Assembly: GCA_934148535.1 (NCBI GenBank) | Contig: CAKPDF010000004.1 | Span: 32,169 to 96,168, forward strand | DNA: 64,000 bases | Source of the DNA: an uncultured Bacilli bacterium | Lineage (GTDB): Bacteria > Bacillota_I > Bacilli_A > RF39 > UBA660 | Direction of reading: 5' to 3' | Part shown: in pieces, positions 3,325 through 32,511 of the stretch | How the letters are laid out: each line of letters begins with the position of its first letter | Numbering within the stretch: position 1 is the stretch's first letter | Notes under the pieces: model-generated | Seen by the model: only the letters and a program-made list of their open reading frames with translations | What the model was told of the DNA's origin: nothing | The model's database searches: none | Program-made: the position numbers and the translations under genes

Positions 3325-3981
3325 ATGGAAGAAAAAATAGTTAGTTTACTAGCATCAAAACCATTAATAGTACCAAGAATACTATTCCAAAATTATAAAA
3401 AAATAAATATAACAGAAGAAGAATTAATAATCTTAATATGTTTAATAAATATTGGAGAAAAAATACCATATAATCCAGAAAGTATTTCCAAAGAGTTAGG
3501 TATGGATAAATTTAAATGTATGCAAATGATAAGTTCATTAGAAGAAAAAAATATAATATCAATAAAAGTAGAACCAAATGCAAAAAATGAATTAGAAGAA
3601 TATATATATCTTGATTTAATGTATCAAAAATTATTTAATAAAATAATAGATTCAAATGAACCAAAGGAAAATAAAGAAGAATCAAAAGATATATTTACAG
3701 TATTTGAAACAGAACTAGGAAGAACATTATCAGGAATGGAATGTGAAATAATAAAAGGTTGGTTAAATGATAATATAAGCCCAGAATTATTAAAAGAAGC
3801 ACTAAAAGAAGCTGTTTACAATGATGTAAAAAATCTAAAATATATTGACAGAATAGTTTACAGTTGGAAAGAAAAAGGAATAAAAACAAAAGAAGATGTA
3901 ATGAAAAATAAAATTAATTACAGAAAAGCTCAAAAAAGTAAATCTCCAGTATTTGACTATAACTGGTTAGAAGATGAATAA
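3325..3981 (+). CDS. dnaD: DnaD-domain replication initiation / membrane attachment protein
   Basis: C-terminal DnaD-like domain (ELGRTLSGMECEIIKGWLND...YIDRIVYSWKEKGIKT). Lies immediately upstream of and overlapping nth, as dnaD-nth does in Bacillus subtilis. Confidence 0.7.
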   Translation: MEEKIVSLLASKPLIVPRILFQNYKKINITEEELIILICLINIGEKIPYNPESISKELGMDKFKCMQMISSLEEKNIISIKVEPNAKNELEEYIYLDLMYQKLFNKIIDSNEPKENKEESKDIFTVFETELGRTLSGMECEIIKGWLNDNISPELLKEALKEAVYNDVKNLKYIDRIVYSWKEKGIKTKEDVMKNKINYRKAQKSKSPVFDYNWLEDE

Positions 3982-4627
3982 TATGGATGATATTTTAAAT
4001 TATTTAGAAGAATTATATCCTAACGCCCACTGTGAATTGGAATATAAAAAAGATTATGAATTATTAATAGCAATAGTTTTAAGTGCTCAAACAACTGATA
4101 AAAGAGTAAATAAAGTAACAAAAGTTTTATTTTCAAAATACCCATCTTTAATATCATTAAAAGAAGCAAAATTAGAGAGTATTGAAAATATAATAAAAGA
4201 AATAGGAACTTATAAAAAGAAAAGTGTATTTGTAAAAAATATTGCAACAACCTTAGTAAATGATGGTTATACCAAAGTACCAAATGATAGAAAATACTTA
4301 GAAACATTAAGCGGTGTTGGTAGAAAAACAATAAATGTTTTTTTAGCAGAAATATATAATGTACCATCCATAGCAGTTGACACTCATGTAGAAAGAGTAA
4401 GTAAACGCATAAATTTAGCAAAAGAAGAAGATAATGTATTAACAATAGAGAAAAAACTAATGAAGAAAATTCCAAAAGAAAAATGGATAAAAGCCCATCA
4501 TCAATTAATATTTTTTGGAAGATATCACTGCAAAGCAATAAAACCTGATTGCAGTACTTGTAAGTTATCAAATATATGTAAATATTATAAAAAAGAGGTG
4601 TTAATAAATGGAAAGAAAAAGAATTGA
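3974..4627 (+). CDS. nth: Endonuclease III (DNA glycosylase/AP lyase)
   Basis: HhH-GPD motif (LSGVGRKTINVFL...VDTHVERV) and C-terminal 4Fe-4S Cys cluster C-x6-C-x2-C-x5-C. Strong colinearity with B. subtilis Nth. Confidence 0.9.
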   Translation: MNNMDDILNYLEELYPNAHCELEYKKDYELLIAIVLSAQTTDKRVNKVTKVLFSKYPSLISLKEAKLESIENIIKEIGTYKKKSVFVKNIATTLVNDGYTKVPNDRKYLETLSGVGRKTINVFLAEIYNVPSIAVDTHVERVSKRINLAKEEDNVLTIEKKLMKKIPKEKWIKAHHQLIFFGRYHCKAIKPDCSTCKLSNICKYYKKEVLINGKKKN

Positions 4628-5180
4628 AATAGAAGCAAAATTCCCTTTAAAAAATATGGAATATACTATAAACAAACTAAAGGAAGTTGGAGTACATTCG
4701 GAAAAAAATAAATTTCAAAAAGATATTTATTTCACTCCAGCCCATGAAAATTTTATAGAGAAAACTCCAATTTCTAAATGGTTAAGAGTTAGAGATGATG
4801 GAGAAGAACAAACAATAAATTATAAAAATTGGAGCAATTTAACTGGTAATAATAAAATCACTTGCAAAGAAATTGAAGTTGGTGTAGATGATTATAATGG
4901 AATGTTAGAAATATTAAAAATGTTAGATTTTAAGGAAATAATTGTAGTGGAAAAAATAAGAAATTCATTTGAGTATAATGATATAATATTTTCAATAGAT
5001 ACAATTAAAGATTTAGGTAATTTTATTGAATTAGAATTTAAGACTAACAAATTTGAAACAGAAGAAAAAAGTTTGGAATATATTAAGGATAATTTAAATA
5101 CTCTTAAAATAGAAGTAGGAAATCAAATATTTGCTGGTTATCCTCAACTAGTTATGGAAAATAATAAATTAAATAATTAA
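4608..5180 (+). CDS. CYTH-domain protein (class IV adenylyl cyclase / triphosphate tunnel metalloenzyme family)
   Basis: N-terminal EIEAKF motif typical of CYTH. Size ~190 aa. Confidence 0.55.
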   Translation: MERKRIEIEAKFPLKNMEYTINKLKEVGVHSEKNKFQKDIYFTPAHENFIEKTPISKWLRVRDDGEEQTINYKNWSNLTGNNKITCKEIEVGVDDYNGMLEILKMLDFKEIIVVEKIRNSFEYNDIIFSIDTIKDLGNFIELEFKTNKFETEEKSLEYIKDNLNTLKIEVGNQIFAGYPQLVMENNKLNN

Positions 5181-5255
5181 CCATTTCATATTAATTACTA
5201 TGCTAGTTAATTAACTTGAAAAAGTCTTTTTTTTTAGATATAATACTCTTAGGTC

Positions 5256-6074
5256 GTGATATTTATGAGTAGTATTATAAAAATAGATGGACTAACATAC
5301 AAAATTAAAGAAAAAATTATACTAGAAAATATAAAATTAGATATAGAAAAAAACACTTGGGTATCAATAATAGGCCCAAATGCTAGTGGTAAAACAACCC
5401 TAATAAAAATATTAGCAGGAATACTACCGTATAATGGTTATATAAATATAAATAACTTTGTACTTGATAATCAAAATAAAAAAGAAATAAGAAAATCTAT
5501 AGCAGTAGTATTAGATGATACAGAAAATCAATTAATAAATCAAACAGTATTAGAAGAATTATCATTTGCAATGGAAAATTTGAATTATCCAAAAGTAGAA
5601 ATAGAAGAAAAGATAAAACAAATATCAAAAGAATTTATGATAGAAAACTTATTAAACGAAAAAATACAAAATATAACAAACTCAGAAAAACAATTAGTAA
5701 ATATTGTATCTAACTTAGTAACTAATCCATCTATTTTAGTATTAGACGATGCACTACATCAAATGGAACCAAGTACTAAAGAAATGTTTTTAAATAATTT
5801 AAAAAGATACAAAAAGAAAAACAAACTAACAATTATAATGTCTACTCATAACTTAGAAGAAACATTAATTACGGATAGAGTTATAATAATAGATAACAAA
5901 AAAATAATAGCAGATTCTACACCACTATCTATTTTAAAACAAGAAAAGTTATTATCTTCTGCATCATTAGAGCAGCCATTTATAATTGAACTATCGCAAA
6001 AATTAATGTTATATAATTTAATAAATCACACTTATTTAGATAAAAGAAAGCTAGTAGATGACTTATGGAAATAG
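5256..6074 (+). CDS. ecfA1: ECF transporter ATPase subunit A1. Alternative ATG start at 5265.
   Basis: Walker A IIGPNASGKTTL, ABC signature region. First of two tandem ATPases followed by a T component and truA. Confidence 0.8.
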   Translation: MIFMSSIIKIDGLTYKIKEKIILENIKLDIEKNTWVSIIGPNASGKTTLIKILAGILPYNGYININNFVLDNQNKKEIRKSIAVVLDDTENQLINQTVLEELSFAMENLNYPKVEIEEKIKQISKEFMIENLLNEKIQNITNSEKQLVNIVSNLVTNPSILVLDDALHQMEPSTKEMFLNNLKRYKKKNKLTIIMSTHNLEETLITDRVIIIDNKKIIADSTPLSILKQEKLLSSASLEQPFIIELSQKLMLYNLINHTYLDKRKLVDDLWK

Positions 6075-6883
6075 AATTAAAAAATATAAAATATGAAAAA
6101 AATAATGAATTATTACTAAATAATATAAATATCACATTCCAAAATCAAAAAATAACTTCAATAATAGGTCCCTCTGGTAGTGGGAAATCACTAATAGGAT
6201 ATTTATTAGTAAATTTAATTAAAGAAACTGATGGAATAATAAGAATAGATGGTAAAAGAAATTACGATATTAATAAAATAAAAAAGAGTATTGGTTATGT
6301 ATTTCAACAACCCGAAATTTGTTTTTTTAATAAAACAGTATATGAAGAATTATCCTATAGCATAGAGAATTTTAATTATAAATTAGAAAAAAAAGAAAAA
6401 AGAATAAGTGAATTATTAAAAATAGTAGGTCTTAAAGAGGAAGTACTACCAAAAAGTCCAAATGAATTAAGTAGCGGAGAAAAAGAATTATTAGGTATAG
6501 CTTTATCCTTAACCTTAAATCCTAAAGTAATAATATTAGATGAACCAACAGTATATCTTGACAGTAAAAATAAAAAAAATTTAATAAAACTATTAAAAAA
6601 GTTAAAAAGAGAATATCAAAAAACTATAATAGTAATATCAAATGATATAAATTTTATTTACGAAATATCAGACAATATTGTATTAATAAATAATGGAGAA
6701 GTAAAATTAAGTATAAATTGTAAAGAATTAAATAATTATTACAAAGTTTTAAAAGAAAATAATATGGAAGTACCTCTAATTTTAGAATTTATAAATTTAG
6801 TAAAAGAAGAAAAAAATATAAATCTTAGCAGCACTAATGACATAAATGAACTTATAAAGGAAATATATAGAAATGTTAGATAA
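6065..6883 (+). CDS. ecfA2: ECF transporter ATPase subunit A2
   Basis: Walker A IIGPSGSGKSLI, LSSGEKELL signature, Walker B ILDEPT. Overlaps ecfA1 stop. Confidence 0.8.
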   Translation: MEIELKNIKYEKNNELLLNNINITFQNQKITSIIGPSGSGKSLIGYLLVNLIKETDGIIRIDGKRNYDINKIKKSIGYVFQQPEICFFNKTVYEELSYSIENFNYKLEKKEKRISELLKIVGLKEEVLPKSPNELSSGEKELLGIALSLTLNPKVIILDEPTVYLDSKNKKNLIKLLKKLKREYQKTIIVISNDINFIYEISDNIVLINNGEVKLSINCKELNNYYKVLKENNMEVPLILEFINLVKEEKNINLSSTNDINELIKEIYRNVR

Positions 6884-7610
6884 TAGATACATTTATTTAG
6901 GTGGTTATTACAATGAAGAATCTTATATTCATAAATTTAACCCAAGTATAAAAATAATAATAACATTAGTGCTAATAATTTCTCTAATTATATCAACTAG
7001 TATTTTAGATATAATTATATTAAATTTATTTATATTAGTTGTATTATTCCTTAGTAAAATAAAATTAAAAACATATATAAAGACAATATTAAAATATACA
7101 TTATTATTAATAACAATATTTATAATTTCTTTACTTTTATCAAGAAGTGTATACTTTTCAACATATCTGTTAGTTAAATTTATAGATTTAATATTAATAC
7201 TAAGTATATTAATAAAAACAACAAAACCATTAGAAATAAATATGGGACTATCTTATTTATTAAACACAAAAATAATAAATTTAAAACATTTAATTTTAAA
7301 TATAACACTAATATTAATCGCAATTCCCTTAATAGAAGAAACAAGAAGGGAGATTAATAATAGTATAAATTTAAGGACCATACAACCCAATAAAAAAAAT
7401 ATAATTAATAAAATTAAGCAAAATATTAAAAATATAGAACCAATTTATAGATTAACCAAAAATAAAATAAAGAAAATCTATACAGTAATGGAATTGAAAA
7501 ATTATTCATATTTTGCAAACAGAACAAAAAAACAATATAAAAACAAAACTACAGAGTTTATAACCTTATTATTAAGTATTATAATATTTGTATTAATAAT
7601 TATTTATTAA
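6873..7610 (+). CDS. ecfT: ECF transporter transmembrane (T) component
   Basis: Multi-TM protein. N-terminal SYIHKFNPSIKII resembles the EcfT S-x-LH-x-L-xP-x-K motif. Sits in the conserved ecfA1-ecfA2-ecfT-truA position. Confidence 0.6.
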   Translation: MLDNRYIYLGGYYNEESYIHKFNPSIKIIITLVLIISLIISTSILDIIILNLFILVVLFLSKIKLKTYIKTILKYTLLLITIFIISLLLSRSVYFSTYLLVKFIDLILILSILIKTTKPLEINMGLSYLLNTKIINLKHLILNITLILIAIPLIEETRREINNSINLRTIQPNKKNIINKIKQNIKNIEPIYRLTKNKIKKIYTVMELKNYSYFANRTKKQYKNKTTEFITLLLSIIIFVLIIIY

Positions 7611-7627
7611 GAAAAGAGGAGTTTACT

Positions 7628-8377
7628 ATGAGATATTTTATAACATTTTCCTATGATGGAAGCGATTTTTCAGGATACCAAAAGCAACCAAAAGCAAGAA
7701 CAGTACAAAATGAATTAGAAAAAGTATTAAAACAGATAAATGGAAATAAAGAAGTTGAAGTTCAGGCCTCAGGAAGAACGGATGCAGGAGTTCATGCTAT
7801 GAATCAAAAAGCTCATTTTGATTTAACATCTGAATTAACTTGTGAGAAATTACAAAAAGCAATGAATTCATTATTACCTAGTGACATATATATCAAGAAG
7901 GTAGAAGAAGTAGATGAAAATTTCCATGCAAGATTTAATGCAACAGGGAAAGAATATATCTATAAAATAAATATGGGAGAATATAATCCGTTAGAAAGAA
8001 AATATGTATATCAACACAATAAAAAATTAGATGTATCAGAAATGCAAAGAGCATTAAAGTATGTAGAAGGAACCCATTGCTTTAAATCGTTTACCAAAAT
8101 AGATGATGAAAAAGAAGATAAAGACGGATATGTAAGAACACTATCACAAACAAATATAGAAAGAGACCTAAAAGACGTAAACAAAATAACATTAGTTTTT
8201 ATAGGAACTGGTTTCTTGAGATATATGGTTAGAAATATAGTAGGAACCCTAATAGATATAGGAGAAGGAAAAATAAAAAGTGAAGATATAATAGAAATAT
8301 TAAAACAAGAAGATAGAACTAAAGCAGGTAAAACTGCTAACCCAGAAGGATTATATTTAAAAAATGTATTTTATTAG
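7628..8377 (+). CDS. truA: tRNA pseudouridine(38-40) synthase
   Basis: MRYFITFSYDGSDFSGYQKQP...GRTDAGVHA catalytic Asp motif. Canonical position after the ecf genes. Confidence 0.9.
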   Translation: MRYFITFSYDGSDFSGYQKQPKARTVQNELEKVLKQINGNKEVEVQASGRTDAGVHAMNQKAHFDLTSELTCEKLQKAMNSLLPSDIYIKKVEEVDENFHARFNATGKEYIYKINMGEYNPLERKYVYQHNKKLDVSEMQRALKYVEGTHCFKSFTKIDDEKEDKDGYVRTLSQTNIERDLKDVNKITLVFIGTGFLRYMVRNIVGTLIDIGEGKIKSEDIIEILKQEDRTKAGKTANPEGLYLKNVFY

Positions 8378-8450
8378 TAAAGTGTAATAAAAAAGTAGAC
8401 ACATAATTTTAAAAATGATAAAATTAAAATAAAGAAAGAAGGGGTCATAT

Positions 8451-9848
8451 ATGGCAGAGACTGAAGTGGTTCTAAGAGAAGCCTCAAGTTTAATGAGAAA
8501 AATAGTTGGGTATGAACAAGTATGTGAAAGAAGATTAAGTAATATAAACAATAATTTTGATACAACATCTGATAAAAGAGAAGAAAAATTAGAGACAAGA
8601 AAAGAGCTAAAATATTGGCAAAGCGTTCATCGAAAAATAGAAAGAGTAAGTGAAATTGCAGATATACATTTTGATGGTACAGAAGCAAAAAGACCAGAAT
8701 ATCCTCAAAAAATAGAAGTTTTAAATACTACTAAGATAATGATTTACTTAGAAAAAGCATTTTCTAAAAGTGGTCAAACAATGGATGCAGACCTAAAAAA
8801 ATTGGGAAAGATTATATCAGAAGAAGATAGAAATAGAGAAATGGGCAAAACGAAAAGAAAAATTCAAGATATAGAGCAAAGTAGAGATGAGCTTAAAACT
8901 CAAATGAAAGAACAACCAAGAGCCTTTTTCAAAAAGCCTTTATATTACCAAGAATGTATGGACTATATTGATAATATTTTAAAAGAAGTTCGTATTCCAA
9001 AAAGTACACATAGAGAATTTAATCCAGACGAACCAGTTAATGATGTTTCAACAATAACAGATTATGCAGGATTATTAGAAAGATATCAAACTTTAAAATT
9101 AGCAAATCGTCAATTAGAAGATATTGAATATCCGTTCATAACAAAAAGAATTACAGAATTACAAGATATCCAATATAAAAGGTCAGCAATTTCTATGGTG
9201 AAAATTTATTTAATGGATTTACCATATAAAAGTGATTATCAAGAAACCATCACCGAATTAAGAAATATTGATTTAAAATTAATACATCAACAGCAAAAAA
9301 TATTAGAAGAATTAAAAGAAAAAAGAATTATTACAACAATTACTAAAATAAAAATAGTAATAGATAAAGAAGAAAAAAGATTGAAGGAGAAAAGTGCAAT
9401 TGAACATGCAGTAGCTGACCTAGTAAGAAATTATAGTAAAAGTGCACTTATAAGAGTTCAAAAAGAACATAACCTTACAGATAGCCAATTATCTCAAGTA
9501 GAGTTAGCAGCAACTAGAATTATAAATGGAAAAGCACCACAACAACCAATTATACCAACAATTGCTACTCAACAGCAAGAAGCTAAGGAAGTAGTAAGTC
9601 CATCAATGAGTATTGAAGAAGAAGCTTTACTTAGAGCTAAAAAAAATGGATACATAGAAGTAGATAAAAAATTAAAAAATCTTTCAAAATTAGAAAGACA
9701 AATATTATATTCTTATGTTAGAGAAATTCAAACTGAAAACGAAGAAAAAAAGGAAGCTAGATTTAGCTCTATAAAACAAATATATGATCAAAAAGTGGAA
9801 GAGGAAAGGAAGCAAACTCATTCTTCATCAGTAGGAATGAGAAGATAA
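8451..9848 (+). CDS. Hypothetical 465-aa highly charged coiled-coil protein of unknown function
   Basis: Long ORF with RBS GAAGGGG 6 nt upstream of the ATG. No recognisable catalytic motifs. Confidence 0.5.
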   Translation: MAETEVVLREASSLMRKIVGYEQVCERRLSNINNNFDTTSDKREEKLETRKELKYWQSVHRKIERVSEIADIHFDGTEAKRPEYPQKIEVLNTTKIMIYLEKAFSKSGQTMDADLKKLGKIISEEDRNREMGKTKRKIQDIEQSRDELKTQMKEQPRAFFKKPLYYQECMDYIDNILKEVRIPKSTHREFNPDEPVNDVSTITDYAGLLERYQTLKLANRQLEDIEYPFITKRITELQDIQYKRSAISMVKIYLMDLPYKSDYQETITELRNIDLKLIHQQQKILEELKEKRIITTITKIKIVIDKEEKRLKEKSAIEHAVADLVRNYSKSALIRVQKEHNLTDSQLSQVELAATRIINGKAPQQPIIPTIATQQQEAKEVVSPSMSIEEEALLRAKKNGYIEVDKKLKNLSKLERQILYSYVREIQTENEEKKEARFSSIKQIYDQKVEEERKQTHSSSVGMRR

Positions 9849-9852
9849 ATTT

Positions 9853-10137
9853 ATGGAAGAAATAGATATTATAACTAATAACTTATTAGAAGCATATAAA
9901 GAACTATCGTTAGATAGCAAAAGAAATGAATTTAATAAAGAGATGATAATATTAACAAGCCTAATAAATTCTTTGCTAAGCAATTATACAAATAAAAAAT
10001 TGCATATGCCTAAAAATTATAAAAAAGGAATAGACACAGAACTAACTGAAGATGAAGTATTAACAAACAATTATATAGATTTATTAGAATTAAAAAATAA
10101 TATTTTAACATTAATTACATGTATTAGTAATAAATAA
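9853..10137 (+). CDS. Hypothetical 94-aa protein, probably co-transcribed with the upstream 465-aa ORF
   Basis: Starts 4 nt after the upstream stop. No recognisable motif. Confidence 0.35.
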   Translation: MEEIDIITNNLLEAYKELSLDSKRNEFNKEMIILTSLINSLLSNYTNKKLHMPKNYKKGIDTELTEDEVLTNNYIDLLELKNNILTLITCISNK

Positions 10138-10175
10138 TTACATTATTTTTTATAGCATATAAACTATTTTTATTA

Positions 10176-10232
10176 ATCACCACTTGGATATTTAAAAGCA
10201 CCAAGTGGATAAACAAATACTTGGGTGATTGT
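10176..10232. promoter_or_regulatory. Tandem 13-bp boxes CACCA(C/A)(T/G)TGGATA spaced 21 bp start-to-start, plus a third partial inverted copy. Candidate operator upstream of parC.
   Basis: CACCACTTGGATA at 10178-10190 and CACCAAGTGGATA at 10199-10211. Each has a CCANNTGG dyad core. The reverse complement of 10218-10230 resembles the AATCACC-extended box. Confidence 0.35.
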
Positions 10233-10297
10233 AAACACCTGAGTTTTTTTCTTGTTTTATCCCATAAATTATGATAAGATTATTAAAGGTGATAAAG

Positions 10298-12811
10298 ATG
10301 GAAGACATAATAAAAAGAATTTACGATTATTCACTAGAAGAAATAATGGGAGAAAGATTTGGAAAATATTCTAAATACATAATTCAAGATAGAGCAATCC
10401 CAGACGTAAGAGATGGATTAAAACCAGTACAAAGAAGAATATTATTCTCAATGTATAAAGAAAAAAACACTTATGATAAACCTTACAAGAAAAGTGCCCG
10501 TGCAGTAGGAGATGTTATGGGTAAATACCATCCTCACGGAGATAGCTCAATCTATGACGCAATAGTAAGAATGAGCCAAAGTTGGAAAATGAGAGAACCA
10601 TTTGTAGATATGCAAGGTAATAACGGATCAATAGATGGCGATTCAGCAGCAGCCTCACGTTATACAGAAACAAGATTATCAAAAATAGCAGGAGCAATGT
10701 TAAAAGATATAGACAAAGATACCGTAGTAATGGCACCAAACTATGATGATACTCTTCTAGAACCAACAGTCTTACCAGCAAAATTCCCAAACCTTTTAGT
10801 AAACGGAACAACAGGAATATCTGCAGGATATGCTACAAATATACCACCACATAATTTAGGAGAAGTTATAGATGCAACTATCTATAGAATAGAACATCCA
10901 GATTGTGAATTAGATAAAATAATGAAGTATATCAAAGGTCCAGATTTTCCAACCGGTGCTATCATAGAAGGAATAGATGGAATAAAATCAGCATATAAAA
11001 CCGGAAGAGGAAAAATAATTATCAAATCACGAGCAACAATAGAAAAAAATAAAATAATAATATCAGAAATCCCATATGAAGTAAATAAAGCTCAACTAGT
11101 AAAAAAAATAGATGAAATAAGAATAGATAAAAAAATAGATGGTATATCAGAAGTGAGAGATGAATCAGACAAAACAGGATTACAAATAGCAATAGATTTA
11201 AAAAAAGATGCAGATGCTACCAACATATTAAACTATTTATACAAAAATACTGAATTACAAATATCATATAACTTTAATATGATATCAATAGTAAATAGAA
11301 GACCAATGTTATTAGGAGTTATAGGAATATTAGATGCCTATATAGCCCATCAAAGAGAAGTAGTATTAAAAAGAACAAACTTTGATCTAGAACATGCTAA
11401 AGCAAGATACCACATAGTAGAAGGCTTAATAAAAGCAATATCAGTATTAGATGAAGTAATAAAGATAATTAGAGCAAGTAAGGATAGACAAGATTCAATA
11501 AATAATTTAATAAGTAGATTTGAATTTACCGAAGCCCAAGCAACTGCTATAGTAGACATGAGATTATATAGATTATCAAATACAGACATAGTAGCACTTC
11601 AAGAAGAAAAAGCTAACCTTGAAAAAATAATGGAAGTATTACAAAAAATATTAGAAAGCAAAGCCCAACTAGATAATGTAATAAAAGAAGAATTAAAACA
11701 AGTAAAAAAAGAATACGCAACTCCTAGATTATCAGAAATAAGAGAAGAAATAACAGAAATAAAAATAGATAATACAGTAATGCTACCAAAAGAAGACGTA
11801 GTAGTAGTAGTAACAAAAGAAGGATATGTAAAAAGAGTTTCACTTAGAAGCTATGAAAAATCAAATACTGATGATCTAACATTAAAAGAAAATGACTATG
11901 TAATAGGATTATATAATATGAATACCCTAGATACATTACTAGTATTTACAGATTTAGGAAATTATTTATATATTCCAGTACATGAATTACCTGACTTAAA
12001 ATGGAAAGACTTAGGAAAACATATAAGTAATATAATTAATATAGATTCAGAAGAAGTTGTAATAAATGCAATGCCAGTATATAACTTTGATGACGATATA
12101 TATGTAACATCATTCACTAAAAACGGAATGATAAAAAGAACATGGCTAAAAGAATTTAAAGTTCAAAGATATTCAAAAGCAATAAATATGATGAAATTAA
12201 AACCTGGCGATAAAGTAGTAGATGTATCTTGTAGTAAAGAAAAAAATATTTTAATAGCAACAACCAAAGGTTATGGTCTATGGTATGACGTAGAAGAAGT
12301 ATCACCAGTAGGAATTAAAGCAGCAGGAGTAAAATCAATAAACTTAAAAGATGATACAGTAGTAAGTGGAATTTTATTTAATGCAAACACTGAATATCTA
12401 TCAATAATAATGGATAAAGGAACTGCTAAAAGATTAAAATTATCTGAAATAGATAAATCATCAAGAGCAAATAGAGGATTACTACTAATGAAAGAAATAA
12501 AAAGTAATCCTAGTAAAATAATTAAAGTATATGCTTTACCAACAAAAAACGAAATAGTAGTAACAACTAAAAATTATGAAAAAGAATTAAAATTAAGTGA
12601 AATCCCAATAATGGATAGATATAGTAATGGTTCTTATATAGTTAAAGATAAAATAATTGACACTCATGAGTTGACTAAATTAACATCAAAAGAAGACTTG
12701 GAAAAAGAAGTAGAAGTAGAACCAGTAGTAGAAAAGCATCAAGAATCATTAAAAGAAATAGATGATAGAATGATGACAATAGATGATTTATTAAAAAATA
12801 TGGAAAATTAA
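10298..12811 (+). CDS. parC: DNA topoisomerase IV subunit A (GyrA/ParC family). The ORF track start at 10271 is probably an N-terminal over-extension.
   Basis: Near-colinear with B. subtilis ParC from [30 protein letters not shown] through the catalytic Tyr region and C-terminal domain. No GyrA-box QRRGGKG seen. RBS AAAGGTGA before the ATG at 10298. Confidence 0.8.
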   Translation: [837 protein letters not shown]

Positions 12812-12818
12812 AAATCAA

Positions 12819-12853
12819 GGATGTTTATAGCGTATTATAAACATTCTTTTTTA
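12819..12853 (+). terminator. Rho-independent terminator of parC
   Basis: Stem ATGTTTATA / TATAAACAT with loop GCGTAT, then TCTTTTTT. Confidence 0.65.
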
Positions 12854-12881
12854 AATAAAAATGTAAACAATATGTCAAGAT

Positions 12882-12910
12882 ATTGAGACAAATAATAAAA
12901 TATAGTATAA
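12882..12910 (+). promoter_or_regulatory. Sigma-A-type promoter for murF
   Basis: TTGAGA (12882-12887), 17-nt spacer, TATAAT (12905-12910). Confidence 0.55.
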
Positions 12911-12935
12911 TTTAAACAAAGAAAAGAGTGATAGA

Positions 12936-14309
12936 ATGCATAATATTTATGTAAAAGACTTATTAAAAATATGTAAATCAGAATTAATATCAGGTAATCC
13001 TGATATGATACTAGAGAATTTTTCCAAAGATACAAGGACAATAAAAGAAAATGATATATATATAGCTTTATCTGGAGAAAAAGTAGATGGTAACATTTAT
13101 GCAGAAGATGCTTTAAAAAAAGGAGCATCATGTTGCATACTAGATAATTTAGACTATATAGATACCCAAAAATATAAAGATAAAACAATAATTAAAGTAG
13201 ATAATACAATAGAATGCTTGCAAGAGTTAGCAAAATTAAAAAGAAGTAAGTACAATATTCCTGTAATAGCAGTTACTGGAAGTGTAGGAAAAACAAGCAC
13301 TAAAGACATAATAGCAGAAGTAGTAAAAGGAAAGTATAATACATTAAAAACAGAAGGCAATTTAAATAACCATATAGGATTACCCCTAACAATATTAAGA
13401 CTAAAAGACGAAGAAGCACTTGTAGTGGAAATGGGAATGAATCATAAAAATGAAATAAGTGTTCTTACTAAAATAGCAAAGCCAACAATTTCAGTAATTA
13501 CAAATATAGGCACAGCTCATATAGGAAATTTAGGATCAAGAGAAAATATATTAAAAGCAAAATTAGAAATATTAGAAGGAATGGAAAAACATTCAACATT
13601 AATAATAAATAATGATAATGACCTATTACATAAAGAATTACCAAAATTAGAAAAAGATTATAATGTAATAACCATAGGAATAAATAACAATTCAACATAC
13701 CTTGCTAAAAATATTAAAGAATATCCATTTAATAGTAAATTTCAAATTGAAAATAATGACATAGAAATCAATGTTGGTGGATTACCTTTTATATATAATA
13801 GCCTAATAGCATATGCCATTGGAAAGTGTTTAAATATTGATACTGATAAAATAAAAGATGCAATATATAATTTTAAACTATCTCCTCATCGCCAAGAATT
13901 AATAATAAATAAAACTGGTACTACCATTATAGATGATACTTATAATGCTAACATAGACTCAATGTTGACAGCAATAAAAATATTAGGTCAAGTAAAAAAT
14001 AAACGAAAAATAGCCTTATTAGCAGATATGCTAGAACTAGGAGATTATGAAGAAAAATTACATAGAAAAGTAGGAAAAGCAGTAACTGATAATAATATTG
14101 ATATATTAATAACAGTAGGTCCTCTTGCAAATAAATACATAAAAGCAGAAGCAATAAAAAACAACATGGATGAACACTGTATTTACAGCTTCAATAGTGC
14201 TAATGATTCAGTAGATTTTTTAAATAAACTATTAAAAAGTAATGATATAATCCTACTTAAAGGATCAAACTCTATGCATCTAACAAATATCGTAGAAAAA
14301 ATAAAATAA
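12936..14309 (+). CDS. murF: UDP-N-acetylmuramoyl-tripeptide--D-alanyl-D-alanine ligase
   Basis: Mur ligase ATP-binding motif VTGSVGKTSTKD. Central and C-terminal Mur ligase domains. Confidence 0.9.
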   Translation: MHNIYVKDLLKICKSELISGNPDMILENFSKDTRTIKENDIYIALSGEKVDGNIYAEDALKKGASCCILDNLDYIDTQKYKDKTIIKVDNTIECLQELAKLKRSKYNIPVIAVTGSVGKTSTKDIIAEVVKGKYNTLKTEGNLNNHIGLPLTILRLKDEEALVVEMGMNHKNEISVLTKIAKPTISVITNIGTAHIGNLGSRENILKAKLEILEGMEKHSTLIINNDNDLLHKELPKLEKDYNVITIGINNNSTYLAKNIKEYPFNSKFQIENNDIEINVGGLPFIYNSLIAYAIGKCLNIDTDKIKDAIYNFKLSPHRQELIINKTGTTIIDDTYNANIDSMLTAIKILGQVKNKRKIALLADMLELGDYEEKLHRKVGKAVTDNNIDILITVGPLANKYIKAEAIKNNMDEHCIYSFNSANDSVDFLNKLLKSNDIILLKGSNSMHLTNIVEKIK

Positions 14310-14338
14310 AGAGTGTAAACAATTCGCTCTTTTTTTGT
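14310..14338 (+). terminator. Rho-independent terminator of murF
   Basis: AGAGTG...CGCTCT stem (one G-U pair) followed by TTTTTTT. Confidence 0.6.
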
Positions 14339-14387
14339 CTATCTTAAAAATATTATGTTATAATAAAAATAGATTGGTGGTAATAGT

Positions 14388-15698
14388 ATGTTTAAACTAA
14401 AAAAGAATTCATCAGAAGAAAAAATAAAAAAATCCAAAGAAATAATTAAAGAGGAAAAAAGAAAAATTAAAGAAGAAAAGAAAAAAATAAAAAGCCACAC
14501 TAAAAAAAAGCCAAAAAAGCACATTGAAAAAGAAATATATACAAGTAAAGAAGTGGCAATTTCAATAGTAATATCGATGATACTAGGTGCTGTGATTTGT
14601 ATCAGTGCAGTATTATTAACGTTAAAACTAAATCACGTCTTAGACTCTTATAAAGATTTAAGTAAGTTAATAGAAACATATAAAACTATAACAAATAATT
14701 ATTATGGTGATATAGATAAAAAAGAATTAATAGATACCGCTACAAATGCAATGATGGAATCAGTTGGAGATAACTTTACAACTTATAGTAATTCTGAAAA
14801 AACAGAAAGCTTTCTAGAAGATGTAGAAGGTAGCTATGAAGGAATAGGATGCACAGTAACTACAACAGAAGAAGGCAAAATAAAAGTAGTAAGTATGTTT
14901 GATGATAGTCCCGCTAAAAAAGCAGGACTAAAAGAAAATGATATTATTTTGGCAATAGATGGAACAGATTACCAAGATAAGACCAGTAATGATGTAGCAG
15001 AATATGTAAAAAATAGTAAAAATAAAACCATAACTCTAAAAATAAAAAGAAATGACAAAGAAAAAGCAATTAAAATAACAAGAACAAAAATAGATATACC
15101 AGTAGTATCAAGCAATTTATATGAACAAGATAATCATAAAATCGGATATATATCAATATCAATTTTTTCTAAAACAGCAACCGAACAATTTAAAAATCAA
15201 CTAGAAAAACTAGAAAAAGAAAATATTGAAGGACTAGTAATAGATGTAAGAAATGATGGAGGAGGTTACCTATCATCAGTTACAGAAATCTCTAATATGT
15301 TTTTAGCCAAAGGAAAAGTAATATATAAATTAGAAAGTGAAAAAGAAAAAGAAGTAATAAAAGACAAAACTAAAGAAAAAAGAACCTATCCAATAGCAAT
15401 ATTAATAAATGAGGATAGTGCTTCTGCTTCTGAAATATTAGCATCCGCTATAAAAGAAAGTTACAATGGATTAGTAGTAGGAGTAAATTCTTACGGAAAA
15501 GGTACTGTTCAACAAACAAAACAACTAAAAGACGGGAGTATGATAAAATATACAACGCAAAAATGGTTAACACCAAATGGTAATTGGATAAATGAAACAG
15601 GTGTAGAACCAACAAATAAAATTGAGTTAGATACTAACGGAGAAAATGATAATCAATTGCAAGAAGCAATAAAACTAGTAGTTAAAAAATTAAACTAA
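14388..15698 (+). CDS. ctpA: Carboxyl-terminal processing protease (S41 family) with a Lys-rich N-terminus and a TM anchor
   Basis: PDZ segment (PAKKAGLKENDIILAIDG), S41 catalytic Ser context SASASEILA, and conserved Lys in LKYTTQKW. Confidence 0.8.
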   Translation: MFKLKKNSSEEKIKKSKEIIKEEKRKIKEEKKKIKSHTKKKPKKHIEKEIYTSKEVAISIVISMILGAVICISAVLLTLKLNHVLDSYKDLSKLIETYKTITNNYYGDIDKKELIDTATNAMMESVGDNFTTYSNSEKTESFLEDVEGSYEGIGCTVTTTEEGKIKVVSMFDDSPAKKAGLKENDIILAIDGTDYQDKTSNDVAEYVKNSKNKTITLKIKRNDKEKAIKITRTKIDIPVVSSNLYEQDNHKIGYISISIFSKTATEQFKNQLEKLEKENIEGLVIDVRNDGGGYLSSVTEISNMFLAKGKVIYKLESEKEKEVIKDKTKEKRTYPIAILINEDSASASEILASAIKESYNGLVVGVNSYGKGTVQQTKQLKDGSMIKYTTQKWLTPNGNWINETGVEPTNKIELDTNGENDNQLQEAIKLVVKKLN

Positions 15699-15819
15699 AG
15701 CAAAAATAAATAATCAGTCAAGGTAGAAAAAGTATCGTTTCCGACAAAATAAGACAATCCAATACATGATTATGATAGAATTTAGAAGTGCCATGCTAAA
15801 AAAGAAGGAGTGATATAGC

Positions 15820-16542
15820 ATGCTAAGATATATTATTTGTGAAGACAACTCAAACTTTCTTCAAAAAATTTCAGAAGTTGTCCATAAAACAATGATGAGT
15901 TATCAAATAAATTATAAAGTAAATAAATTTACTGGATTCAATAATGAATTAGAAGAACTTATAAAAGATAAAAATGATCACAAAGTTTATATACTTGATG
16001 TAGAAATTCCAGAAGTATCAGGATTAGAAATAGCATCAATGATTAGAACTAGAGATTCAGCAAGTACTATAATATTTTTAACTTCATATCCAGAGTATAA
16101 AAATGATGTGTTTTATTCAAGATTATTAGCATTAGACTACATTCAAAAAGGAGCGCTGTGGGTAGATAGACTAAGTGACACATTGCAATATGTGTTAAAA
16201 AGAATCGAAAAAGATAAATCTCTATCATTTAAGTACAATGGTAATGAGTATAGAGTAGAGTTAGGTGAAATAAATTATATTGAAAAAGTACAAGAGCATA
16301 AAAAGTGTAACATTCATACAAGAGACGGTAAAGTTTATCAAGTATCAACAACATTAAAAGAATTAGAAAAAGAGTTAGGCCCATTCTTTTATCAATGTCA
16401 TAAATCAGTTATAGTAAATATAAATAATATAAAACATATTGATTATCCTAATAACGCTATCACATTCAAAAATAATTCTAGAGAATATCTAATATCAAAT
16501 AGAAATAAGAAAGGATTGAAAGAATATGTTAAAAATCATTGA
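15820..16542 (+). CDS. agrA: LytTR-family response regulator (AgrA-like)
   Basis: N-terminal receiver domain (acidic pocket ...YILDVEIPEVSGLE), C-terminal LytTR DNA-binding domain. Translationally overlaps the downstream AgrC-like kinase. Confidence 0.8.
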   Translation: MLRYIICEDNSNFLQKISEVVHKTMMSYQINYKVNKFTGFNNELEELIKDKNDHKVYILDVEIPEVSGLEIASMIRTRDSASTIIFLTSYPEYKNDVFYSRLLALDYIQKGALWVDRLSDTLQYVLKRIEKDKSLSFKYNGNEYRVELGEINYIEKVQEHKKCNIHTRDGKVYQVSTTLKELEKELGPFFYQCHKSVIVNINNIKHIDYPNNAITFKNNSREYLISNRNKKGLKEYVKNH

Positions 16543-17815
16543 TTCATACTTTGGAATATTAATAATGATGTTTGGAATTATATGTTTTGCAAAGATAATA
16601 CTAAATGAGAAAATTAAAGTTTCAAAAATAAAGTTATCATTAGTAATACTAATTAGTTCTGTAGCCTATACTTTATTAACTTTGTACGCTGATGGTGTAG
16701 AGAAAACATTAATCATAGTTTTATTGAACATCATTACATTTATGTATCTATTTGAGATTGATTATTCAACATCAATAACACTAACATTATTATATATTAC
16801 ATTATTACTTATTCCAGAAATACTAGTACTCATCATACTTGAAATAGGAGTGAACATTCCAAAAACATTATTTTGTGGTGGAATAATTGGTAATACAATA
16901 ATATATATATTATTCTTACCCTTAGTTTATATTGCAAGAAAACAATTGAATAAATTTGTTAATTATAAAATAAATAAAAATGCAAAAATATTAATTTTTT
17001 CAATCTTAACTTTTGTATGTATTAGTGTAGTTTTTTATAATGCATTTATTAATATTAACCCTGGTATCAATTTAATAGTAAGTATATTCATGATAATAGT
17101 TTTTATATGCATTTTGTTAAATTTAATGAAAGAAATGATAAATAACAGCAAATTAATAAGAAAATATGAACAAATTTTAGAATTTATGACCACATATGAA
17201 GATGAAGTAGAAAAACAAAGAGTTCTAAGACATGAGACTAAAAATGCATTTTTAAGTATTAAAGCTCAATTAACAGATAAAACAGAAACTCAAGAGATAA
17301 TTAATTATATAGATAGTATTCTTGAAGATGATGTTAAAATTAAAAATGAAGAATATGCAAAATTTAAATATTTACCTGCTAATGGAATAAAAGGTCTATG
17401 TTATTATAAAATTCAAGAAGCAGAAAATAGAAATATTAAAGTTTCAATAAATATTTCATCAAGAATAAAAAAATCCAGTTTATCTAAGCTATCAGTAAAA
17501 GAAATAAAAGAGTTGGGTAAAATATTAGGTGTTTATCTAGATAATGCAATTGAGGCAAGTGTAAAATCTGAAGATAAAAAACTAGGATTTGAAGCATATT
17601 TAATAGATAACAAAGTAAAAATAATAATTTCAAATACATATAAAGGTGAACTTTCAAAAGAAAAAATTGGAAATGAAATATATTCAACAAAAGGTAAAAA
17701 TAGAGGGCATGGATTATTATTGGTAAAAGAAATAGTAAGTAATAATAAAATGTTTAATATTGATACTGAAATAACAGATAGTTTATATATACAAAGTTTA
17801 ACAATAGAAAAATAG
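16526..17815 (+). CDS. agrC: AgrC-like (HPK10 family) membrane sensor histidine kinase
   Basis: About 6 N-terminal TM helices, H-box RHETKNAF, C-terminal GHKL ATPase G-box KGKNRGHGLLLVKEIV. Confidence 0.8.
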   Translation: MLKIIDSYFGILIMMFGIICFAKIILNEKIKVSKIKLSLVILISSVAYTLLTLYADGVEKTLIIVLLNIITFMYLFEIDYSTSITLTLLYITLLLIPEILVLIILEIGVNIPKTLFCGGIIGNTIIYILFLPLVYIARKQLNKFVNYKINKNAKILIFSILTFVCISVVFYNAFININPGINLIVSIFMIIVFICILLNLMKEMINNSKLIRKYEQILEFMTTYEDEVEKQRVLRHETKNAFLSIKAQLTDKTETQEIINYIDSILEDDVKIKNEEYAKFKYLPANGIKGLCYYKIQEAENRNIKVSINISSRIKKSSLSKLSVKEIKELGKILGVYLDNAIEASVKSEDKKLGFEAYLIDNKVKIIISNTYKGELSKEKIGNEIYSTKGKNRGHGLLLVKEIVSNNKMFNIDTEITDSLYIQSLTIEK

Positions 17816-18035
17816 TATATTTAATTTAGGAGTTTAATAATATAATATTAATATATTGAAAATATAAGAGAATAAAAAATCAAGGATAATGTTTTTAATT
17901 TAATTTAAAGCCTTGTTTTTTTATTATGCGTTATGATTAATGTATAATGAATTAGAAAAATATGCATACCTAAATAACATTATCATAAACACATTTAGAA
18001 AAATTTGTTATGGTAATTATATTTTTTGTAATAAT

Positions 18036-18070
18036 ATATATAAAAACAAGGCCTATTTTTATTGCCTTGT
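18036..18070 (-). terminator. Rho-independent terminator of agrB-agrD (minus strand)
   Basis: On the minus strand: stem ACAAGGC / GCCTTGT with an 11-nt loop, then TTTTTATATA. Lies immediately 3' of the agrD stop. Confidence 0.65.
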
Positions 18071-18086
18071 CCTTAAAGTCTATTAA

Positions 18087-18209
18087 TTATTTTTCTATTA
18101 AACTTTTTGGCATTCTAGGTTCATCAACTATCCAAATAAAGCATCCTTGTGTACCTGCACTAGCAGCAGCACCTCCTATTTTTGCTAAAATATCAGCAAT
18201 AAATTTCAT
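18087..18209 (-). CDS. agrD: AgrD autoinducing-peptide precursor, 40 aa. Not in the ORF track because it is under the 60-aa cutoff.
   Basis: Minus-strand ATG at 18209 with RBS AGGAAGGAGAG 7 nt upstream. Translation is MKFIADILAKIGGAAASAGTQGCFIWIVDEPRMPKSLIEK. It has an amphipathic leader, a single Cys followed by hydrophobic residues, then a DEP...PK acidic/Pro tail like staphylococcal AgrD (YSTCDFIMDEVEVPKEL). Lies 40 bp downstream of agrB. Confidence 0.8.
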   Translation of the reverse strand: MKFIADILAKIGGAAASAGTQGCFIWIVDEPRMPKSLIEK

Positions 18210-18249
18210 ATTATATCTCTCCTTCCTATTCTATATATGTTTAAATAAA

Positions 18250-18855
18250 TTAAACACCGCAATTATATTTTTTGTAGTTATCATATGGCAAGCTAAATAT
18301 CTTATAAACAAACGGATGAATCATTAATATGGCTTCCACTAAACCACATAACAAATATCCACTGACAATATTATCTTTAAAATAAATAATTAATATTAAA
18401 TAAATTATGCCCTTTATACAACTTTTAATTTTAAGAATCCTTCTCTTTTTTGCATTAATAAGAGGCCTTTTAACTGTGTCAGCAGGAGCATACTTTAAAA
18501 GTAAAATGATTGATATCGTACATAGTACTATTTTTATCACTAATGGGATTGTAGCAATGTATTTACTCAAATAAACCCCACCGATAAATAAAGTAATTGA
18601 TGAAATCAAACAATAAATACTTTTACTAGCATGAAGTCCATATGCTGTCGATCTAATCAAATTATAACATAGTAGCAACAGCACTACTTCTTTTAAGATT
18701 CCTAGCAAATATGCAAGACCAAATATTACAATTAATTTTGTCACGGTCAAATACAAAGTTTCAAGTCCATAAGAGATTTCTTCTAATCTTATATCATCAA
18801 AATCATAGTTAGAAGCAATGATATTAACTGAATAATTTAAAAATTTTTTTTTCAT
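18250..18855 (-). CDS. agrB: AgrB accessory gene regulator B (AgrD-processing membrane peptidase), 201 aa. True start 18855, not 18915.
   Basis: Membrane protein with the AgrB catalytic region IRSTAYGLHASKSIYCLISS (R...G.HA...C..S) and APADTVKRP motif. RBS AAGGAGAGAGAA immediately upstream of the ATG at 18855. The 20-codon extension in the ORF track has no RBS. Confidence 0.85.
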   Translation of the reverse strand: MKKKFLNYSVNIIASNYDFDDIRLEEISYGLETLYLTVTKLIVIFGLAYLLGILKEVVLLLLCYNLIRSTAYGLHASKSIYCLISSITLFIGGVYLSKYIATIPLVIKIVLCTISIILLLKYAPADTVKRPLINAKKRRILKIKSCIKGIIYLILIIYFKDNIVSGYLLCGLVEAILMIHPFVYKIFSLPYDNYKKYNCGV

Positions 18856-18873
18856 TTCTCTCTCCTTGTCATA

Positions 18874-18905
18874 ATTATAAGTCATAACATTACTGATGAA
18901 ACTTA
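18874..18905 (-). promoter_or_regulatory. Candidate agrBD promoter
   Basis: On the minus strand, TATAAT (complement of 18874-18879) about 20 nt upstream of the RBS. The -35 is weak (TTTCAT-like). Confidence 0.35.
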
Positions 18906-19196
18906 AAGAAATCAATAAACAAAAAGTAATTTATAACAATAAAAACATAAACACTTAATTAATAAAAATATCTAAAATAACGGAAAAAAAGAAAAAAAAT
19001 TAGTTCTTAAATTAAAGTAAGATGTAGCAAACAAAAAATGATAACTATATGTATACAACATTTCATTTAAAGAATAAAAATATTTATAATATAAAAAATG
19101 AAAGAACTAAAATATATTGTTGTAATTAATTATATAAAGTTCACTTTTCATAAAAAGAAAAAAGTGATATAATATTATCACCAAGAGGAGGTTTTT

Positions 19197-31809: not shown

Positions 31810-32511
31810 ATGATTAATATGAAAAAAATAATTAACTTAACAACATATTTATTTATAATAATTGTAATTGCTTTTATAGCGGCATATTTTCTTGCCAAAA
31901 ACTATAGTAATAAAATATCAAAAGCTCTATATTCATATTCAGAATCTGAATCAAAAAAAATAATTACCGAGATTATAAATTTATCTCTAACAGAAGAATT
32001 AGAAAATGATGATTATAATACTACACTATATAATATAGTAAAAAACGATAAAGATGAAATACAATTAATAGATTTTAATACTACAAAAGTAAACAAAATA
32101 CTATCAAATCTCACTAATAATATAGAAAATAAAATTAAAAATATGGAAAGTAGTCAAATATTAGAAGAAGATGAAATAATGAGTGTCCATAATGGACTTA
32201 TCTTTAATATGCCTATAGGAGCAGTTACAGGAAATGTATTTTTATCTAATATAGGTACTAAAATTCCAGTAAAAATCTCACTAATGGGCAGTGTAATAAG
32301 TAAAATGGATACTAGTATAACAGAATATGGATTAAATAATGCTTTAATAAAAATAGGAATACTAGTAACAGTAAACACTAAAACTACAGCCCCCTTTACC
32401 TCAAAAGAGTTTACAGTAACTAATACTATACCTATCTCAATAAAAGTAATCCAAGGAAGTGTACCAGAATATTATTTAAACAGTTTAAATGATAATAAAA
32501 ATAATAATTAG
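31810..32511 (+). CDS. YunB-like sporulation protein (signal-anchored)
   Basis: N-terminal TM helix. C-terminal region NMPIGAVTGNVFLSNIGTKIPVKI resembles the YunB family core. Confidence 0.45.
   Translation: MINMKKIINLTTYLFIIIVIAFIAAYFLAKNYSNKISKALYSYSESESKKIITEIINLSLTEELENDDYNTTLYNIVKNDKDEIQLIDFNTTKVNKILSNLTNNIENKIKNMESSQILEEDEIMSVHNGLIFNMPIGAVTGNVFLSNIGTKIPVKISLMGSVISKMDTSITEYGLNNALIKIGILVTVNTKTTAPFTSKEFTVTNTIPISIKVIQGSVPEYYLNSLNDNKNNN

Follow-up and report, generated by a model that had tools for sequence, protein, structure and literature searches.

What are the two genes that lie between truA and parC in an uncultured gut bacterium of the class Bacilli, and how did they get there? We analysed 64,000 nucleotides of its genome (contig CAKPDF010000004.1 of assembly GCA_934148535.1, positions 32,169 to 96,168 of the forward strand; lineage Bacillota_I, Bacilli_A, RF39, UBA660), a stretch of ~25% G+C hereafter called the window, in whose coordinates all positions are given unless another contig is named. 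The preliminary description of this DNA, made from the letters alone, singled out two consecutive open reading frames (ORFs) with a 4-nt gap and a well-spaced ribosome-binding site (RBS). Both ORFs, here called genes A and B, lie where it placed them, the stop codon of A and the start codon of B are indeed 4 nt apart (ATTT), and the RBS is as described (Table 1). We consider it very probable that three statements hold together, namely that A and B are real genes, that they form a recent accessory insertion and that they belong to an orphan family. As judged from the sequence comparisons below, the block is a minimal self-contained accessory cassette, composed of a promoter, A and B, which is carried by most, not all, strains of one gut Bacilli species.

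The insertion is defined by comparison with alleles of the same species that lack the block. Among 23 contigs with identical TruA, 20 carry the block and three are empty. The empty contig L095, which encodes an identical TruA protein, aligns to 5192-8376 with 99.0% identity and to 10142-15140 with 98.5% identity, with nothing between. Likewise, L012, with 98% ParC identity, aligns to 7141-8376 and 10144-16495 with 93-97% identity and has the gene order ecfT-truA-parC with a spacer of ~130 bp. Because truA also adjoins parC in the outgroups L015 and L026, as it does in L012 and L095, the empty state is ancestral and 8378-10141 an insertion. The order truA to rplM-rpsI, which had been expected from other Firmicutes, does not apply here: the ancestral neighbour of truA in this clade is parC (L012, L015, L026 and L095).

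The junctions are clean. The insert starts 0-3 nt past the stop codon of truA (filled alleles have TAG here, empty ones TAA) and ends 4 nt past the stop codon of B. With a slash marking the boundary, the empty junction reads TTATTAATA/TTATTTTTTATAGC, the filled left junction TTATTAGTA/AAGTG... and the filled right junction ...AATAATTACA/TTATTTTTTATAGC; between filled and empty junctions, at most 3 bp of the empty site are replaced. A repeat scan and the junction alignment revealed no terminal inverted repeat, direct end repeat or target-site duplication, and no transposase, integrase, attachment-site repeats or adjacent tRNA was found at the block. By eye, the 3' end of truA (ATGTATTTTATTAGTAA, 8359-8380) resembles the 3' end of B (ATGTATTAGTAATAAATAA, 10117-10137) over 7+6 nt (ATGTATT..TAGTAA); this likeness, indistinguishable from chance, could be insertion microhomology or a coincidence in DNA of 25% G+C.

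We scanned relatives for the block by means of ParC, with one genome per species, and obtained 80 loci from uncultured Bacilli, which we take, from the names of related metagenome-assembled genomes, to belong to the RF39 group. Tenericutes, Mollicutes, Bacillales UBA660 and Clostridium sp. CAG:914 are among the labels that these records bear. The public record titles of L012, L016, L021, L025 and others conflict with one another (Oribacterium sp., Muribaculaceae, Tenericutes, Clostridiales, Bacilli), so the taxonomic labels are unreliable. A and B are carried only by contigs of the same species and by one further contig, L011. The same pair in conserved synteny, which the preliminary description thought would speak against an undescribed block, was seen in none of the 79 loci from other species. 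The truA-parC spacer of some relatives holds unrelated ORFs (422 aa in L018, 633 and 657 aa in L041 and L043) with only weak matches to surface-type domains, and the gene 5' of parC varies across the clade, being YqfD, a leucine-rich repeat/DUF285 protein or a protein of no known kind. YqfD lies directly 5' of parC in L013 (7147-8343 of that locus), and ORFs of similar size (394-410 aa) occupy this position in L014, L016, L017, L019 and L021, where they are known by size and position alone. The ORFs 5' of parC in relatives were considered as remote homologues of A or B, and hmmsearch over the six-frame ORFs of the 80 loci identified none. The one marginal match, the ORF at 21602-21925 of L090 (E = 0.01), encodes a membrane protein; its only likeness to B is the motif 'LLELKNxI', which is probably a coincidence, and it lies in a region reminiscent of a conjugative element. 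This region of L090 (17500-22520, ~9 kb 3' of parC) contains, by eye, a sortase-like protein, a single-stranded DNA-binding protein and a surface protein.

A and B are real genes and not chance ORFs, because many contigs carry them intact, a diverged homologous pair exists, the ratio of nonsynonymous to synonymous substitution rates (dN/dS) is below 1, and the promoter and RBS are conserved. Some 80-100 independent contigs from human-gut metagenomes, drawn from several cohorts of which the Hadza are one, carry both genes undamaged, and the 20 carrier contigs analysed in detail contain no frameshift or premature stop. The only other known A-B pair was found in L011, a 2.1-kb Logan contig from run SRR30535861. 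Its A' (P0019, 483 aa) is 32% identical to A (E = 1e-41), its B' (P0017, 95 aa) is 69% identical to B (E = 1e-30), and the gap between them is 2 nt. The 5' neighbour of this pair is the end of a short ORF resembling the C terminus of Nth (50% identity over 18 aa to the Nth of the window, E = 0.001), and a hairpin with a T-run, which we read as a terminator, follows on the 3' side. Because of the nth-like neighbour and the terminator-like hairpin of its own, the L011 pair sits at a locus different from truA-parC. Between the two lineages dS is ~1; with a dN/dS of 0.64, A evolves fast, and B, at 0.18, is conserved under clear purifying selection.

The block is far less diverse than its surroundings. 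The comparison uses the 20 carrier contigs, whose loci were retrieved because they encode exactly one of three variants of A or the TruA sequence. Over 1756 bp of block they show 4 segregating sites and over 7014 bp of flank, taken as seven segments, 122, which makes the flanks ~7.6 times as diverse as the block (binomial p = 3e-8). One to three haplotypes occur in the block versus 5-10 per flanking gene, and no member of the A cluster falls below 99% identity. This pattern fits a recent acquisition that would have been followed by spread across strain backgrounds via recombination. Horizontal acquisition had been suggested beforehand on account of slightly raised G+C and occasional CGT and CGA arginine codons. 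The suggestion itself is borne out by the empty alleles in the same species, by the outgroups and by the low diversity of the block; the reason given for it was wrong, as the composition of the block is indistinguishable from that of the host core genes. The G+C content at third codon positions is 0.131 for A and 0.137 for B as compared with 0.09-0.18 in 21 other genes, the codon log-likelihoods of A and B fall within the core range, and parC has the same 2 CGT and 1 CGA arginine codons as A. Therefore, either the donor was compositionally similar or the original cue was noise.

The gene pair is undescribed. That neither product could be assigned to a known family was confirmed by profile, sequence and fold searches, all of which were negative. 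Searches with A, B and the homologues P0019 and P0017 against Pfam, NCBIfam, PHROGs and PADLOC yielded only noise: neither A nor B matched a single Pfam family at E<=1, PHROGs matched the pair only at E>0.1, and the sequence profiles of the PDB gave nothing for either protein. By tblastn, A, B and P0019 found nothing in 50,697 phage records or 72,556 plasmids, and JGI metagenome contigs and IMG/VR scanned with both alignments also returned nothing. A word-indexed search of 5.8 billion proteins recovered same-species copies only, plus P0017 for B, and an exhaustive phmmer search of 1.8 billion representatives identified P0019 as the sole homologue of A.

The proteins themselves are described here from their sequences and from AlphaFold2 models computed from two-sequence alignments. 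A is basic (isoelectric point (pI) 8.9), with 35% charged residues and no hydrophobic segment, and B is acidic (pI 4.9); neither has a signal peptide or a transmembrane segment. The model of A, of modest confidence (mean predicted local distance difference test score (pLDDT) 69, predicted template modelling score (pTM) 0.39), is all-alpha with 13 separate helices of 10-45 residues. A had been called largely coiled-coil, which overstates the case, as windows with a strong heptad pattern cover only ~13% of its residues in a crude heptad test; it is right that the protein is all-helical. Identity between A and P0019 is patchy, reaching 48% at residues 160-182, 45% at 259-313 and 59% at 388-433 and falling to 4-30% elsewhere, and residues 388-457 form the best-conserved and best-predicted region. 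Sequence comparison detected no internal repeats in A and no similarity between A and B. The model of B, again of modest confidence (pLDDT 64, pTM 0.46), has three helices (3-16, 20-46 and 66-92) around a conserved loop, which reads LHMPKNYKKGID (NYKKGID) and is kept as NYRKGID in P0017; the final 8 residues of B differ from those of P0017.

Foldseek searches of the PDB and BFVD with these models gave no match at E<0.1 for A or B. The strongest matches of A (E = 0.12-0.15, template modelling (TM) score ~0.1) are generic long-helix proteins, and its weak matches include Rad50 (7zr1_C, E = 0.15), MukB, BAR domains, alpha-pore-forming toxins, tape-measure proteins and phage SMC-like proteins, all at E>0.1 and, in the PDB, with TM scores <0.2. 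The matches of B include the export chaperone FliS (E>1) and several MIT domains; for the latter, E exceeds 1.5 throughout and the probability is at most 0.25, with a model whose pLDDT is 64. A PspA/ESCRT-III protein with an MIT-domain partner would join a PspA_IM30 or Snf7 fold in the large protein to an MIT three-helix bundle in the small one; Pfam gave no such match for A.

The insert appears to bring its own promoter. The consensus promoter scan scored the site upstream of A at 10 of 12 with the TG of an extended -10 element present, although the number of such sites is no higher than in shuffled sequence, and the score is not evidence alone. The -35, TG and -10 elements are kept in the L011 homologue (AAGTAGAC ... 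AAAAATGnTAnAAT), with TAGACA/TAGACT as the -35 and TGnTAnAAT as the extended -10 element, and L011 has a AAGGAAAGAGG motif at the position of the Shine-Dalgarno sequence of gene A. The insert contains no terminator and relies on the hairpin and terminator resident downstream. The region after the pair had been described as structured and repeat-containing. The hairpins do exist (the region 10180-10251 folds as RNA at -25.8 kcal/mol, z = -2.7), but this is not DNA of the block: it consists of the resident truA terminator and the parC promoter, and the sequence of 10180-10251 is unchanged in the empty alleles L012 and L095. The resident truA terminator is thus predicted to end the cassette transcript now. 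We rejected the hairpins as a riboswitch or attenuator of the block, since they have no match in Rfam, are present in empty alleles and have the parC promoter 3' of them. The 3' arm of the first hairpin (CCAAGT) could also base-pair with the 5' arm of the terminator stem (ACTTGG), a layout that resembles an attenuator.

Two points of the preliminary description concern the parC gene downstream. The start of parC had been placed at 10271, the ATG of the longest ORF (846 aa), which falls within the extended -10 box of parC itself. The start at 10298 agrees with the TIGR01061 match, which begins at residue 17 of that ORF, with the gene callers, which give 837 aa on all contigs, and with the conserved RBS; the pattern 'TATGnTAnnAT ... 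GGTGAT' recurs 5' of parC in ~40 related species, whichever gene lies upstream. The other point, that parC stands without parE, was correct, as the window has no ParE-sized ORF (its large ORFs are thrS, a class A penicillin-binding protein, polC, valS and parC); the lack of parE characterises the whole sub-clade and shows no link to the block. Only in more distant relatives does parE lie directly 5' of parC, as in L066. We also considered A as a degenerate ParE, and this was ruled out by a Pfam scan of A, which found no GHKL ATPase, DNA_gyraseB or Toprim domain; the true ParE of L066 (7670-9571 of that locus) scores 2.9e-61 on PF00204 in a scan of this kind. An ORF of 129-144 aa lies between a parE-sized ORF and parC in L066 (9588-9992), L057-L059, L074, L076, L083, L085 and L087, and that of L066 matches no Pfam family.

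Table 1. Features of the truA-parC interval in window coordinates.
Feature	Coordinates	Strand	Description
truA (left flank)	7628..8377	+	PF01416; final gene of the ecfA1-ecfA2-ecfT-truA operon
Inserted segment	8378..10141	+	~1.76 kb; defined against same-species empty alleles
Predicted cassette promoter	8396..8424	+	sigma-70 type; -35 TAGACA, 17-nt spacer, extended -10 TGATAAAAT
Shine-Dalgarno sequence of gene A	8439..8444	+	AAGGGG, 6 nt 5' of the ATG; direct sequence reading
Gene A	8451..9848	+	465 aa, ATG start, 54.8 kDa; ORF call
Gene B	9853..10137	+	94 aa, ATG start, 11 kDa; ORF call
Resident hairpin	10180-10208	+	arms CCACTTGG/CCAAGTGG; outside the insert
Resident intrinsic terminator	10219-10244	+	stem, then T-run (region to 10251); terminator scan
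Resident parC promoter	10252..10297	+	-35 TTGTTT (10252-10257); extended -10 TGATAAGAT (10272-10280); RBS AAAGGTGAT
parC (right flank)	10298..12811	+	837 aa; TIGR01061, 1041 bits, Gram-positive type

What might such a cassette do? We tentatively propose that it is a conflict module, acting either in phage defence or abortive infection or as an addiction pair; this is possible rather than probable. The proposal draws on mobility without mobility genes, strain variability, the diversity trough and the combination of a fast-evolving large and a conserved small subunit. The fuller version, in which A and B would be founding members of an undescribed conflict system without a recognisable enzymatic domain, now in a gene-specific sweep through one human-gut species by recombination, is more doubtful still. 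The cassette would have arrived recently from a compositionally similar donor and would be spreading among strains by homologous recombination of its flanks. Transcription may start at the extended -10 promoter of the cassette and may also enter it from the ecf-truA operon by read-through. Because B starts 4 nt past the stop codon of A, the two are likely to be translationally coupled, and the opposite charges together with the tight gene spacing suggest that the products could act as a complex, for which the C-terminal helices of A (residues 388-433, with 388-457 as the likeliest region) would be a candidate interface. In this scheme A would be a rapidly diversifying sensor or effector and B its conserved partner or neutraliser.

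Several observations weigh against a conflict module. None of A, B, P0019 and P0017 matched a PADLOC-DB v2 model at E<=1, neither A nor B has a detectable enzymatic, nucleic-acid-binding or toxin domain, and no defence, prophage or mobility genes lie near the block, the window being core chromosome. An all-helical protein of 465 aa is atypical as a toxin and, to our knowledge, an all-alpha toxin of this size would be unprecedented. The lack of fold matches is weak evidence because the models are of modest confidence. Just two lineages are known, too few for co-variation or context statistics, and the way in which the loci for the diversity comparison were fetched biases it towards similar blocks.

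Comparison with known systems gives partial likenesses. Two-gene abortive infection (Abi) systems of lactococci are small strain-variable defence cassettes of low-G+C Firmicutes. Like them, A-B is an AT-rich two-gene unit with its own promoter, tight spacing and no mobility genes, its products are orphans, as those of Abi systems often are, and its presence varies between close strains; unlike them, it has no similarity to a PADLOC model, and it is chromosomal and flanked by core genes, not part of a plasmid or defence island. With type II toxin-antitoxin systems the pair shares the bicistronic and probably coupled arrangement, a basic large and an acidic small partner and varied genomic sites. 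However, A has no known toxin fold and no Pfam or NCBIfam match, B has no recognisable DNA-binding antitoxin domain, and nothing above noise was found for type II toxin or antitoxin domains in Pfam, NCBIfam or PDB profiles. Restriction-modification units are known as selfish cassettes in operons without mobility genes. The clean insertion between a stop codon and a terminator, the lack of a transposase and the second locus in another genome recall such operon-inserted cassettes, whereas A-B lacks the methyltransferase or nuclease domains of restriction-modification units. The block has no transposase domain, terminal repeats or target-site duplication, as a transposable element, insertion sequence or miniature inverted-repeat transposable element would.

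We weighed four other explanations against the conflict module. The pair could serve as an accessory scaffold in the cytoplasm, needed in the cell cycle, in the handling of chromosomes or in sporulation, with B as a small adaptor, and work with topoisomerase IV, MurF or spore formation. An all-alpha, highly charged and basic A would suit such a role, as would the neighbouring parC and murF, the presence of sporulation genes (YunB in the window, YqfD 5' of parC in relatives) and the weak fold matches to the generic long-helix proteins Rad50 and MukB and to BAR domains. We nevertheless regard it as unlikely, since the block is dispensable, being absent from same-species strains and from 79 related species, and the L011 pair adjoins an nth-like gene with its own terminator-like hairpin. 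In addition, the fold matches, all of the poor quality given above, reflect generic helices and not homology: A shares long helices with SMC, Rad50 and MukB, but it has 13 short-to-medium helices, no SMC_N or AAA match in Pfam and, by eye and with no systematic scan, no ATPase head or Walker motif. The thought that the cassette is a neutral or decaying hitch-hiker, acquired in a single event and made frequent by drift along with a successful strain background, seems to us similarly improbable. It would account for homologues limited to one singleton contig among 1.8 billion representatives, for undetectable domains, for a composition identical to that of the host and for an A that is almost neutral (dN/dS 0.64 at dS ~1). 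It would not readily account for the purifying selection on B (dN/dS 0.18), for ORFs, promoter, RBS and gene spacing retained over dS ~1 or for the absence of frameshifts and stops in the carriers, and the occurrence of the block on several flank haplotypes fits recombination better than clonal hitch-hiking.

Still less likely, in our judgement, is that A is a leaderless secreted or surface effector and B its helical chaperone or export partner of the type VII or flagellar type. Both proteins are all-helical without signal peptides or transmembrane segments, as are type VII substrates of the LXG/Lap and WXG100 kind, where a helical hairpin of ~100 aa stands beside a larger helical protein, and B, a helix-loop-helix protein of ~94 aa, has the general WXG100/Lap shape. 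The larger protein changes quickly in evolution and the smaller one slowly, the same spacer in relatives holds the ORFs with weak surface-type matches, and the weak fold matches of B include FliS. These points are countered by the failure of A and B to match any Pfam family at E<=1, LXG (PF04740), WXG100 (PF06013), DUF3130, DUF3958 and Lap-type models included, by the lack of a W-x-G motif in B and of a C-terminal toxin domain, by E values above 1 for the fold matches of B, and by the absence of secretion-system genes in the 64-kb window, where no EssC/FtsK-type secretion ATPase occurs among the ORFs scanned. Finally, a prophage, plasmid or integrative element might leave behind, as a remnant or moron, a small AT-rich cassette with its own promoter inside a core operon and with strain-variable presence, but we hold this origin to be very improbable: the tblastn searches of phage records and plasmids, PHROGs, IMG/VR and the BFVD folds (E>0.1) were all negative, and neither integrase nor attachment-site repeats nor an adjacent tRNA accompany the block. 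The conflict module is the reading that we put forward, with the reservations already given.

The remainder of the window offers some observations of its own. A second strain-variable islet lies between nth and ecfA1 (3974-5256), where the window holds only a CYTH-domain gene (4608-5180). The islet differs in other same-species strains (L093, L095 and L098-L101): CYTH is preceded there by a YfiH-like gene (Cu-oxidase_4) together with a gene for Peptidase_S51 or for a 229-aa protein of no known kind; in L095, nth is fused to Cu-oxidase_4 (479 aa) and CYTH is missing. Downstream of parC follow murF and a gene for a CtpA-like protease. An agr-like quorum-sensing locus occupies 15820-18915; its response regulator is of the LytTR type (15820-16542), its histidine kinase of the GHKL type (16526-17815), and AgrB (18250-18915) is encoded on the opposite strand. 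The sporulation gene for YunB is at 31810-32511, and an ORF of the PD-(D/E)XK transposase family (324 aa, 37327-38301) lies between polC and valS.

The order from which this DNA comes has no cultured members, and its accessory biology is almost unknown. Filled and empty alleles on nearly identical backgrounds provide a clean natural experiment, and the trough in diversity points to a gene-specific sweep of recent date in human populations of several continents. Should the cassette prove neutral, it would simply join the very many orphan accessory genes that gut metagenomes contain and matter little more widely. Should it work as a conflict or fitness module, the defence and addiction systems would gain an all-helical protein pair without recognisable domains. 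As orphan accessory cassettes abound in gut metagenomes, the interest is modest, and within these bounds the locus is a tractable candidate for new conflict systems in uncultured Bacilli.

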